The position numbers and the translations under genes were made by a program. DNA of 31,448 bases from a virus. Taxonomy: Duplodnaviria; Heunggongvirae; Uroviricota; Caudoviricetes. This document shows, piece after piece, positions 9,898 through 16,349 of this stretch. The notes under the pieces are model-generated. The model did no database searches. It saw only the letters and a program-made list of their open reading frames with translations, and had not been told where the DNA came from. The stretch's first letter is position 1, and every line of letters starts with the position of its first letter. The stretch is from IMG/VR virus record IMGVR_UViG_2526164666_000034; one strand, written 5' to 3'.

Positions 9898-10756
9898 GCG
9901 GATGGTGCAGGCCTGAAATCATGATACTAATAATGAAGGTAAAATGCATCGGCAGTCTGATTGGTCGTAGTGAGGCGGCGGTCAGGATGAAAGCCCAGGT
10001 TAAGGGAATAAGCCTGATTCTGCGGGGTGATTTTCACCAGTCAACAAAATATCCGTAGCGCGATAACGGTCAAAAATTATGGCGCTGACACTTTTGTGCC
10101 ACTGGAGATGACTGTACCTAAGTTCAGGGGAGAAGAACACGTCCGGTGGGATGGTCGGGCCAGATTTAAAGGGCAGGTCATGGCTCCAGCCTGTACGCTG
10201 GCAATGGAGGCTGCCTGGCGGGAAATTGATATGGGAACCACGCCACTCAGGGATTTACTGCCGGTCCAGAGAATAAATTCCTGTTACGGTTACACCACTG
10301 TGATCTTGCAAGTGCAGGAAAGTAGGTCTACACGGTAACGCGAGTGCGTGTAACTTTTGATGTCATTCCCGTAGAAACACCGGACAAATTTTCGCTGACA
10401 GGTCATGCAGAAGGTATAAATCTGCAGATTATGGACAATTACGGATATCCGGCAAGAGCCGGAAAAAGCATGCCGCCTCTAATTCTCAGTGGAAGATGGA
10501 CTTGATTATACTCATTGCATTGTCAGAAATAGTTATCCATTAAAGGCTGGCTATTCCAAACAGGATGTTGATTACAAAAATGTAATCAACATGTAAGGTT
10601 TATACTCTTCAATATGCGTATAATTTTCCTTATTTTGTTGACTTTAAATAACAAGCTATGCACGAGGTAAAGTCGGATAAGTTTATCTGGATGTAATATA
10701 TATTATTTGTAGTGTTTATAACTTTATTTCATGATAACCAATAAAAGGAGTTTTTT

Positions 10757-11515
10757 ATGAGGAACATAATGGCAGGTTTTTTAATATTCCTGTCTTCTGC
10801 TGCTTATGCTGATATCAATCTGTATGGTCCTGGTGGCCCGCATACAGCCTTGCTTGATGCAGCCAAACTTTATGCCGAAAAAACAGGTATTATAGTGAAC
10901 GTTCATTACGGCCCACAGAACAAATGGAATGAAGATGCCAAAAAAAATGCAGATATCTTGTTTGGCGCATCAGAACAATCTGCTCTGGCTATCATTCGGG
11001 ACCATAAAGACAGCTTCAGTGAAAAAGATATTCAGCCTCTTTATCTGCGAAAAAGTATTTTACTGGTAAAGAAAGGTAATCCTAAAAATATCCGGAGTAT
11101 TGACGACCTGACCAGACCTGGGATTGGCGTAATTGTTAATGATGGTGGTGGTACCAGTAATACATCAGGCACTGGCGTCTGGGAAGATATTGCCGGACGT
11201 AAAGGGAATATAGAAACTGTCGCCGCAATCCGAAAAAATATTATTTTATATGCGCCCAATAGCGGAACTGCACGTAAGGCTCTTGAGAATCAGCCTGGAG
11301 CAGATGTCTGGATAACCTGGGCTGACTGGGCAGCCAGTAATCCAGAAATTGGTGATGTCGTGGAAATAGCGCCAGACTACGTGATATGGCGTGATATGAA
11401 CATTACAGTACGTCAGGATGCAAATGATGAAACCCGTCGATTTGCAGAATGGCTACAAACCGATGAAGCGGCGCCTGCATTCAAAAAATATGGCTGGACC
11501 AGGAAAGGCACTTGA
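10757..11515 (+). CDS. Periplasmic solute-binding protein (ModA-like fold), orphan
   Basis: 252-aa ORF with AAGGAG RBS and a signal peptide (MRNIMAGFLIFLSSAAYA|DI); length and C-terminal ..FKKYGWT.K resemble ModA-type binding proteins; no adjacent permease or ATPase; preceded by ~250 bp of very AT-rich DNA. Confidence 0.6.
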   Translation: MRNIMAGFLIFLSSAAYADINLYGPGGPHTALLDAAKLYAEKTGIIVNVHYGPQNKWNEDAKKNADILFGASEQSALAIIRDHKDSFSEKDIQPLYLRKSILLVKKGNPKNIRSIDDLTRPGIGVIVNDGGGTSNTSGTGVWEDIAGRKGNIETVAAIRKNIILYAPNSGTARKALENQPGADVWITWADWAASNPEIGDVVEIAPDYVIWRDMNITVRQDANDETRRFAEWLQTDEAAPAFKKYGWTRKGT

Positions 11516-11633
11516 CATCCTCGTCCTTCAGGACGTGGATTCTTTTTCCGGATGCCGCGCCAGCGGCATGTAGGGGCAGCTCACAAAACGGAAAAATTGT
11601 ACGCTAAGCCTCGCCAGGTGAACTGAATTCATT

Positions 11634-11657
11634 CCGATATGGGAATTCCCATATCGG
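11634..11657. repeat. Perfect 24-bp palindrome CCGATATGGGAATTCCCATATCGG upstream of hok
   Basis: Read directly from the sequence; lies between the binding-protein gene and the hok locus. Confidence 0.6.
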
Positions 11658-11849
11658 GCGAAAACGGTTTGCTGTAACGGCAGAGTTAAGTAGGATTGCT
11701 GCGGGTGCTTGAGGCTATCTGCCTCGGGCATGAACACCAACGGCAGATAGATAAAAGCCCCACCCGACTATAAATCGAAGTGAGGCCCCTATATGCTCGT
11801 CACATATAGATTGCCTCTTACGGACCGAAAGGTCAAGGAGAAGCAGGCT

Positions 11850-12005
11850 ATGAAGCAGCAAAAGGCGATGTTAATCGCCCTGATCGTCATCTGTTTAACC
11901 GTCATAGTGACGGCACTGGTAACGAGGAAAGACCTCTGCGAGGTACGAATCCGAACCGGCCAGACGGAGGTCGCTGTCTTCACAGCTTACGAACCTGAGG
12001 AGTAA
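11850..12005 (+). CDS. hok: Hok-family type I toxin (HokD/RelF-like)
   Basis: 51-aa protein MKQQKAMLIALIVICLTVIVTALVTRKDLCEVRIRTGQTEVAVFTAYEPEE matches recalled HokD; AAGGAG RBS; in-frame upstream extension from 11793 resembles a mok-like leader; terminator follows. Confidence 0.85.
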   Translation: MKQQKAMLIALIVICLTVIVTALVTRKDLCEVRIRTGQTEVAVFTAYEPEE

Positions 12006-12073
12006 GAGACCAGGCGGGGGAGAAATCCCTCGCCACCTCTGATGTGTCAGGCATCCTCAACGCACCCGCACTT

Positions 12074-12100
12074 AACCCGCTTCGGCGGGTTTTTGTTTTT
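12074..12100 (+). terminator. Rho-independent terminator after hok
   Basis: Hairpin AACCCGC-TTCG-GCGGGTT followed by a T-rich tract. Confidence 0.55.
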
Positions 12101-12225
12101 ATTTTCAACGCGTTTGAAGTTCCGGACGGCGCCGGAATAGAATCAAAAATACTTAAGTAGCGCGCAGGGAGAAGAGGGATGGACCCCGAACAGGGGAGTG
12201 CTATTTATCTGGAAGGATTCTGTTG

Positions 12226-12483
12226 ATGAGAATCGAAGAATTACGTGAAATTTTTAGTGAAGATGGCCTCTATACTGTGCGCGTTGAGAAGGGCGCTATT
12301 GTCAGCCACTGCCGTATTAAATGTTTACAGTCTCAACAAAGGAAGAGTGGAGCTGCGTTAATTCATTTTGTGGATGGGCTTGTGACGGATGGTTTTATTT
12401 TGCGTGCAAATGAATTTGTCACATCGTTGCCGTCTCTGAAAGAAGCTGGGATTAAGGCTGGTTTTTCTGCTTTTGAAGATTAG
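12226..12483 (+). CDS. Hypothetical 85-aa protein
   Basis: ORF with GGAAGGA upstream; no recognisable family. Confidence 0.35.
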   Translation: MRIEELREIFSEDGLYTVRVEKGAIVSHCRIKCLQSQQRKSGAALIHFVDGLVTDGFILRANEFVTSLPSLKEAGIKAGFSAFED

Positions 12484-15133: not shown

Positions 15134-15209
15134 GGCCCTTTAGCTCAGTGGTGAGAGCGAGCGACTCATAATCGCCAGGTCGCTGGTTCAAATCCAGCAA
15201 GGGCCACCA
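15134..15209 (+). tRNA. ileZ: tRNA-Ile (anticodon CAU, ileX/ileZ-like)
   Basis: 76-nt cloverleaf ending GGGCCACCA; closely resembles E. coli ileX as recalled; anticodon loop CTCATAA; encoded CCA. Confidence 0.8.
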
Positions 15210-15210
15210 A

Positions 15211-15286
15211 CCGCCACTAGCCATCAGGAAAGAGCGTCAACCCTTTAAGTTGAGTGTGCGAGGTTCGAGTCCCCGGTGGTGGTCCA
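15211..15286 (+). tRNA. tRNA-like gene, identity uncertain (anticodon loop CCUUUAA, nominal UUU)
   Basis: 76 nt with a 7-bp acceptor stem, perfect 5-bp anticodon stem, TTCGAGT T-loop and CCA end, but a weak D-stem and C at position 33; may be a divergent phage tRNA (Arg slot in Stx phages) or a pseudo-tRNA. Confidence 0.5.
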
Positions 15287-15299
15287 TTATCGGTATTCT

Positions 15300-15373
15300 G
15301 CGTTGTTAGCTCAGCAGGACAGAGCAATTGCCTTCTAAGCAATCGGTCACTGGTTCGACTCCAGTACAACGCG
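15300..15373 (+). tRNA. tRNA-Arg (anticodon UCU)
   Basis: Cloverleaf with acceptor GCGTTGT/ACAACGC, anticodon arm ATTGC-CTTCTAA-GCAAT, T-loop TTCGACT; no encoded CCA. Confidence 0.75.
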
Positions 15374-16149: not shown

Positions 16150-16349
16150 TTTTTTGTTTGCTGTTTATTAAAAACACTTCTGCATGGTGAATCCCCCTGT
16201 GCGGTGGGGCAATCAGCAAGAAGGAATATGGGGTAATCGCGGATTCAGGTGCTGATACTGAATTCACCGGGAGGCACCCGGCACCATGCTTTGCCACAAA
16301 AGTGTTATTTCTGTTTTTCTCAAACTATCATCGTTATCCCTTTATTTTC

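Follow-up and report, generated by a model that had tools for sequence, protein, structure and literature searches.

What does a perfect 24-bp palindrome do in front of a phage-borne toxin gene, and is that toxin gene part of a complete module? Both questions are raised by positions 11,634 to 12,100 of IMG/VR record IMGVR_UViG_2526164666_000034, a tailed-phage (Caudoviricetes) sequence of 31,448 nucleotides that was analyzed as a whole and is called the window below. A first-pass annotation made from the sequence alone had described a hok/sok-type type I toxin locus here, with an antisense RNA expected on the minus strand, and had taken the palindrome for a candidate protein-binding site or transcript-end structure. 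Our analysis indicates that the segment 11669-12100 is, in all likelihood, a complete hokD-type hok/mok/sok type I toxin–antitoxin (TA) module, and that the palindrome lies outside it as the remnant of a BstA-like gene. The hok locus is already known and annotated and adds little in itself; the conserved coding palindrome of the BstA-like family is the only part worth following up.

The toxin frame is intact, as the first-pass annotation had stated. Its 51-aa product scored 81.6 bits against the Pfam family HOK_GEF (PF01848, cut-off 22) and is identical to HokD of Escherichia coli K-12 (51/51 residues). The mok-like in-frame leader was also borne out by a 70-aa frame whose product shares 81% identity with K-12 MokC, and the terminator by a hairpin followed by a T run (coordinates of all features are collected in Table 1). 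In the Rfam scan, family RF01794 matched 11703-11852 on the plus strand with 103.9 bits (gathering score 59), the full model (1-157) being covered, while the minus strand reached only 15 bits. Folding of 11703-12096 yielded a minimum free energy (MFE) of -166 kcal/mol (z = -7.1 vs shuffles). In the MFE structure of this full-length RNA, the translational activator element tac (11703-11714) pairs with the fold-back inhibition element fbi (12055-12067), and the anti-Shine–Dalgarno box ucb (11757-11763) pairs with the Shine–Dalgarno (SD) sequence of mok (11780-11786). Removal of the last 44 nt in silico caused tac (11703-11710) to switch to ucb (11755-11761), and in the centroid structure of the truncated mRNA the SD pairs with a downstream box (11813-11817). 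Of 44 distinct relatives, 42-44 retain the tac/fbi helix, with two-sided changes at 19 other pairs. A sub-threshold match to the Salmonella prophage sRNA isrK was also detected over the 3' untranslated region and terminator of the hok mRNA (12014-12095, plus strand; 24.9 bits, gathering score 50, E = 0.0025).

Alignment to K-12 puts its annotated sokC and sokB genes at 11803-11747 on the minus strand. In the predicted Sok RNA (-22.7 kcal/mol, z = -3.3), the 5' tail can pair with the mok SD and AUG; a strong stem-loop and the U-rich UUUUAUCUAU come after it. The antisense RNA had been expected on the minus strand across roughly 11780-11860; a homologous Sok position was found on that strand, but it extends from 11803 to about 11745, and the part of the expected span at 11808-11836 is instead, by the sokC/sokB alignment, the putative sok promoter. 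The -35 hexamer of sok is conserved among relatives (TTGACC/TTG-CC), and the -10 is mostly TAACCT or TAATCT, with CACTCT in hokC. The alignment proposed in the first-pass annotation, together with folding, located tac/fbi, the ucb anti-SD box, mok, the sok promoter region and the Sok terminator hairpin; the absence of such elements, named there as refuting the locus, was not observed, and the hok/sok identification stands. These results supply coordinates for an unannotated, predicted Sok RNA in a widespread prophage of enterohaemorrhagic E. coli (EHEC). RF01794, named 'sok antitoxin', is a model of the sense-strand hok mRNA leader ending at the hok AUG, so annotation based on Rfam puts 'sok' on the wrong strand; the real Sok would lie opposite.

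Comparison with known systems places the locus among the hokD types. The hokD gene of K-12 (relF, in the Qin prophage) encodes the identical Hok, is nearly identical from the hok SD to the terminator, and has the same neighbourhood (hokD-rem-ydfU-Q, with dicF/dicB on the other side). However, its homology to the window begins only at ~11835, and relBE occupies the place of the promoter, tac, ucb, the mok start and sok. The window locus retains the whole leader, with paa upstream, and its arrangement is not that of the relBE-hokD operon; in agreement with the first-pass annotation, no relB- or relE-like genes adjoin hok in the list of open reading frames (ORFs), the annotation or the Pfam results, paa (10757-11515) lying upstream and a rem-like ORF downstream. 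Because K-12 hokD shares sequence only from ~11835, the window represents the complete form of the hokD locus, and shows the module as it was before relBE displaced the leader in K-12. The K-12 hokC/mokC/sokC locus (gef) has a leader that is ~80% identical and of the same length class, with the same CAxTCT-type -10, whereas the coding part in the window is hokD-type; K-12 hokC has IS186 just downstream, and the window has its own fbi and terminator. The hokW-sokW locus of the Stx2 prophage Sp5 belongs to the same family and to the same kind of lambdoid prophage position, and is an experimentally working type I TA that aids phage release (PMC8621323). The Stx2-phage hok loci that are ~86% identical to the window locus presumably represent hokW-sokW; in most relatives of this Stx2-phage type, the Sok stem-loop region is longer by an insertion of ~21 nt and the -10 reads TAACCT or TAATCT, unlike in the window. 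In the hok/sok system of plasmid R1, the same logic of tac/fbi closure, ucb masking, 3'-processing switch, antisense Sok and RNase III decay has been described (PMC9841398). The R1 switch was reproduced in silico for the window mRNA, and the likeness to R1 is one of described mechanism, not of alignment: R1 differs in its plasmid setting and its divergent sequence, the window being a prophage, and even HokW shares only 44% identity with R1 Hok (PMC8621323).

By analogy with the R1 and hokW paradigms, a weak promoter would give rise to a stable mRNA of ~394 nt, in which pairing of tac at the 5' end with fbi at the 3' end and masking of the mok SD by ucb would keep the full-length RNA silent in translation. 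Slow 3' trimming would then strip off fbi, tac would move to ucb, and mok would be translated, followed by hok through translational coupling. Short-lived antisense Sok would cover the mok SD and AUG, blocking activation for as long as it is transcribed. Several observations weigh against a module that is active in this way. The sok -10 of the window (CAATCT) is without the usual first T, neither the putative hok promoter nor the putative sok promoter reached the threshold of a consensus promoter scan, and the hok loci on the K-12 chromosome are reported to have no activity in post-segregational killing (preprint 10.1101/2025.08.07.668861), so that activity here is assumed. The module could accordingly be structurally intact yet functionally silent, a passenger tolerated like those K-12 loci; the weak -10 hexamers of both sok and hok (the latter is TAGAAT or TATAAT in relatives), the failed killing tests and the frameshifts in the Q and ydfU genes of the window, by which the prophage may be decaying, all fit such a passenger. 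We regard this as rather unlikely, given that every regulatory element is intact and conserved, that the HokD peptide is toxic on expression (preprint 10.1101/2025.08.07.668861), and that hokW-sokW of Sp5 works as a TA and helps phage release (PMC8621323). A-to-I editing of hokC, hokD and hokE mRNAs is reported to recode Tyr to Cys, like TadA editing of hokB (preprint 10.1101/2025.08.07.668861). The Tyr codon near the end of hok in the window is TAC followed by G (11988-11991, plus strand). TACG is the target context of TadA.

The palindrome itself was found as described, perfect and unique. It is the longest perfect palindrome in the 31-kb window and its own sole match there even at 3 mismatches (0.00 expected, 100 shuffles). 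It lies 45 nt upstream of the hok transcription start and folds on either strand into a hairpin of 10-11 bp (-18.3 kcal/mol, z = -4.4). To obtain an unbiased sample, hok loci were retrieved by a 22-nt pattern covering the end of the -10 region and tac. Many of the loci with the identical tac and -10 region are preceded by quite different DNA that does not contain the palindrome (L296- and L303-types), and in hokC, hokB and mEp460-type hok loci similarity begins right of the palindrome, which is absent. Since hok loci with the same tac and -10 region do without it, the palindrome is placed outside hok/sok, and by these comparisons it most probably has no part in hok control.

Two regulatory roles suggested by its form and position fare poorly against these data. 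An operator or insulator, acting on the hok promoter or on read-through into it, would suit a 24-bp dyad, which is typical of dimeric regulators, ending only 11 nt upstream of the putative -35. We consider it very improbable, because equivalent hok loci lack the element, because descent from a coding region (below) accounts for its sequence, and because its half-sites occur in the window at chance level (38 matches with at most 2 mismatches vs 28 expected), with none in the cI-cro intergenic region (6826-6901); an operator of the resident phage repressor was rejected on these half-site results, and the protein-binding site proposed in the first-pass annotation is not supported. Some slight room is left for a protein-binding role, which would then concern the KilA-N/BstA-like gene family and not hok/sok. 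Least probable of all is a hairpin that ends or stabilises transcripts of paa or of a truncated 34-aa ORF upstream. The stable fold on both strands would favour it, but no T run follows on either strand (GCGAAAAC or AATGAATT follows the hairpin) and the terminator scan made no call, which also disposes of an intrinsic terminator; moreover, paa has its own terminator-like hairpin (11522-11535), and the identical sequence occurs inside ORFs elsewhere. One extra exact half-site (GATATGGGAA) was noticed at 10228-10237 in the fimbrial pseudogene (~0.06 expected by rough estimate), with no dyad partner nearby.

The origin of the palindrome emerged from its minus strand. The peptide read there (Table 1) aligns with SRDMGIPISELIQ in the intact protein of a related phage sequence, L088 (tblastn, E = 0.068), and at the nucleotide level 11622-11665 can be aligned with the antisense strand of intact genes (40-44 nt, 84-90% identity), in one orientation only. 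The flanks match the family consensus save for the Leu-to-TGA change; core and flanks together fit the family dyad at the codons x-D-[MIVTA]-G-I-P-[IVTAM]-S/T-E, and the edges of the palindrome coincide with the sharp 12-bp-arm boundary in 75 intact homologues. In a scan of viral contigs, the 16-nt core was found in at least 120 contigs, and its occurrences include positions inside long ORFs encoding x-M-G-I-P-I-y. The non-KilA-N, non-hok cases were put down, by rough estimate, to chance among the many long palindromes of a very large collection, and a generic phage palindromic motif was rejected. The L088 ORF encodes 257 aa with a Pfam KilA-N domain; its entire length matches PHROG 6287 ('BstA abortive infection system'; 299 bits), and its C-terminal half matches the PADLOC BstA model. 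It is divergent from a hok locus at a distance of ~355 nt, the same relative arrangement as in the window, and the inner 22 nt of the window palindrome are identical to this E. coli intact gene. No intact ORF with KilA-N (PF04383) and the BstA C-domain exists at the window site, where only ~14 codons with an in-frame TGA are left, and none of the hok loci with the exact tac pattern was found to have an intact KilA-N gene within 1.5 kb upstream. Further decayed copies were detected, some of them longer (L079: SPDMGIPISRLTQSVKA) and some in unrelated contexts. The palindrome is therefore read as the surviving core of a KilA-N/BstA-like gene that once stood divergent beside hok, as the intact gene still does in related phages.

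Variation among relic copies is uncompensated (outer C to A or G, a 1-nt deletion, central C to T), and by haplotype count ~4 of 24 nt are variable in the palindrome vs 7/30 and 3/20 in the flanks. Purifying selection on orphan copies was rejected on this ground: in the unbiased tac-pattern sample, the palindrome of the window lineage changes as much as its flanks, and uncompensated. On sequence comparison, a gene fossil, and an inert one, is thus the most likely reading. Three points weigh against it. The fossil is short, with a protein-level E-value no better than 0.068; the palindrome has remained perfect within a dead reading frame; and the intergenic segment with the orphan palindrome was counted 2069 times across 751 E. 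coli genomes (median 3 each) while the intact L088-type gene occurs in only 137, which could mean retention for function.

In the loci that have it, the palindrome comes after the stop codon of a small 34-aa ORF, which in the window has been cut away by the paa cargo (junction ~11600-11612). This hydrophobic ORF (MSDDISLAMEGALAVIAVVGVYCLVVFLMDRLGN) precedes the palindrome in other prophages (L006:2412-2516 and L007:2403-2507); in the window only its last few codons are left at ~11600-11626, the paa cargo having replaced the rest. In an O170:H18 genome (L008:2400-4540), the same small ORF, the palindrome and the start of the hok-upstream sequence are present without hok, whose place is taken by genes for an IbrB-like protein and a PAPS reductase on the opposite strand. 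The spot appears to be a cargo-exchange site.

To characterize the palindrome in intact genes, 80 homologues (L210-L289) were collected from one-genome-per-species bacterial assemblies with the peptide patterns QW[LA]SPKFA and QGTWVHPx[VI], which are located in other parts of the protein. With 58-71% identity, the set spans Alpha-, Beta- and Gammaproteobacteria, Chloroflexi, Firmicutes and other groups. Essentially every member has a 24-nt palindrome at the same D-M-G-I-P-I-S codons (74 intact genes; e.g. L210:636-675, and L088:2800-2835). The complementary fraction is 0.69-1.0 up to 12 nt from the centre and 0.19-0.31 beyond. Compensated variants include ATG..CCC ATA, ATC..CCG ATA, ACG..CCC GTT, GTC..CCG ACA, GCC..CCG GCA and ACT GGG ATC CCA GTA. 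On average 9.15 of 10 stem positions are paired; other centres within these genes average 2.57, and resampling of synonymous codons with the protein fixed gives 6.79 ± 0.12. Entropy is 0.7-0.9 bits in the palindrome vs 1.7-1.9 bits at fourfold-degenerate control codons, and the synonymous third base of the Pro codon is complementary to its partner in 69/69 genes. Pair counting revealed 92.5% paired cells (slid controls, 27-46%) and two-sided changes at 8 of 10 pairs, with 71 two-sided-change cells vs 15.4 ± 3.0 in shuffles. KilA-N relatives in which the G-I-P motif is missing do not have the palindrome. On the sense strand, G·U-type mismatches are not in excess (7 vs 17 of A·C type), and loop positions show no covariation; an mRNA hairpin in the intact genes is without support, and the mismatch types do not separate DNA-level from RNA-level selection. 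A neutral route could also be envisaged, in which template-switch correction of quasipalindromes keeps the arms matched without function. In the literature searched, neither a description of this palindrome nor a paper linking KilA-N with palindromes or hairpins was found, and Rfam has no family for it. Coding palindromes that are maintained across phyla through compensatory changes are rare, and this one resides in phage-defence genes, in a family whose self-immunity is DNA-based.

The published BstA system allows a function of orphan copies to be weighed. Self-immunity in BstA is DNA-based, resides inside the bstA locus and is specific to the cognate variant (PMC8585504). The parent gene of the palindrome encodes a KilA-N protein with the C-domain of BstA (for BstA/aba, see Owen et al., 2021), and the palindrome resembles aba in being a small intragenic DNA feature that is not the same in all variants. 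However, the aba element of BTP1 is 63 bp long and non-palindromic, has terminal direct CCCGCC repeats and spans the bstA start, so that the palindrome differs in position and form; BTP1 bstA has a divergent N-domain and lacks the palindrome, and no palindromes of at least 8 nt were found in it. Identity of the palindrome with the published aba element was rejected for these reasons.

The orphan palindrome might nevertheless be a still-working copy of a cis-element of BstA-like genes, for example a KilA-N-bound DNA site that acts like aba and lets a bstA-less prophage replicate beside a cognate BstA-like protein. The very strong nucleotide-level constraint in intact genes would agree with this, as would the DNA-based, variant-cognate immunity within the bstA locus (PMC8585504), the perfection of the window copy and its identity to the L088 gene over the inner 22 nt, the centring of fossils on the palindrome in several unrelated contexts (L079, L035, L106, L011 and L108), and the fact that orphans are far commoner in E. 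coli than the gene (751 vs 137 genomes). Against it stand the only mapped aba, that of BTP1, which is a 63-bp non-palindromic element at the start of a gene without the palindrome, and the decay of relics, which is about as fast as that of their flanks and uncompensated; we hold a working copy to be unlikely. A more specific version, in which the palindrome is a free-standing copy of a nucleic-acid element kept by DNA- or RNA-level selection in the KilA-N-coding part of BstA-like genes throughout Bacteria and the orphans are anti-defence decoys, seems to us quite unlikely, and a retained cis-element or decoy taken together stays within the same low range. If the element were a recognition or self-immunity site, decoys would allow prophages without bstA to evade a BstA-like system in the same cell. 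Orphan anti-defence sites would then be scattered through prophages, and the palindrome would give a direct handle on how BstA-like proteins discriminate self from non-self. The inert fossil remains our preferred reading of the window copy.

Table 1. Positions of the palindrome, the gene fossil and the elements of the hok/mok/sok module in the window.
Feature	Position	Strand	Basis
KilA-N (BstA-like) gene fossil, putative	11622-11665	-	reads ..SPDMGIPISE*IQ..; Leu changed to TGA stop
Perfect 24-bp palindrome, CCGATATGGGAATTCCCATATCGG	11634-11657		12+12-nt arms, 100% complementary, no spacer
Putative hok promoter	11669-11696	+	-35 TTGCTG 11669-11674, 16-nt spacer, -10 TAGGAT 11691-11696; inferred by reading
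Full-length mok-hok mRNA, ~394 nt, predicted	11703-12096	+	Rfam leader match, fold, terminator
tac element, GGGUGCUUGAGG	11703-11714	+	partner 12055-12067 in full-length RNA, 11755-11761 after 3' truncation
Predicted Sok antisense RNA, ~57-59 nt	11745-11803	-	alignment to annotated sokC/sokB; fold
ucb, anti-SD box of mok	11755-11763	+	partner mok SD 11780-11786 in full-length RNA, tac after truncation
mok SD, GUGAGG, within Sok target	11780-11785	+	read from sequence and folds
mok ORF, 70 aa, in frame with hok	11793-12005	+	ORF list; 'gef' in phage records
Putative sok promoter	11808-11836	-	-35 TTGACC 11836-11831, 17-nt spacer, weak -10 CAATCT 11813-11808
hok toxin ORF (HokD), 51 aa	11850-12005	+	SD AAGGAG at 11835-11840; Pfam, K-12 HokD identity, RefSeq hokD
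fbi element, CCUCAACGCACCC	12055-12067	+	folds; pairing kept among relatives
Intrinsic terminator of hok mRNA	12074-12100	+	hairpin 12074-12091, 7-bp stem, 5 G-C pairs, T run

The region 11500-12250 shows 99.9% identity to more than 500 complete E. coli genomes, mainly of O157, O26, O111, O103 and O145 strains. It also matches PPompW phage records, some of them joined to Stx2a phage sequence, in which the locus is annotated as hokD or gef. The gene order in matching records is ompW, int, xis, exonuclease, dicB, repressor and cro-like genes, replication genes, fimbrial pseudogene, paa, hokD, rem-like ORF, DUF968 (ydfU) gene, rusA, Q, tRNAs, lysis genes and genes for type III secretion system effectors. 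The hok module lies in the early-right (nin-equivalent) region, with the paa adhesin cargo on one side and rem-ydfU-rusA-Q on the other. Besides 'sok', the Rfam scan of the window detected DicF, two tRNAs and STnc100. From the annotation of the records and these Rfam matches, the window is identified as a Qin-like, PPompW-type lambdoid prophage of EHEC.

The DicF sRNA (4537-4588, minus strand), the STnc100-family RNA (16153-16325, plus strand) and the two tRNA genes (15134-15373, plus strand) are ordinary for this phage type. Relative to a close relative (L001), single-base deletions were found in A runs at 11592, 13410 and 14381 of the window; the second splits the DUF968/ydfU gene and the third truncates the Q antiterminator gene. 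All top-listed genomes have one extra base within 11500-12250 relative to the window. The deletions could be homopolymer sequencing errors or genuine decay of this prophage copy. Finally, a second perfect inverted repeat (ATGTTGATTACA/TGTAATCAACAT; 12+12 nt with a 4-nt spacer) was identified at 10565-10592, at the end of the fimbrial pseudogene and ~165 nt upstream of paa.

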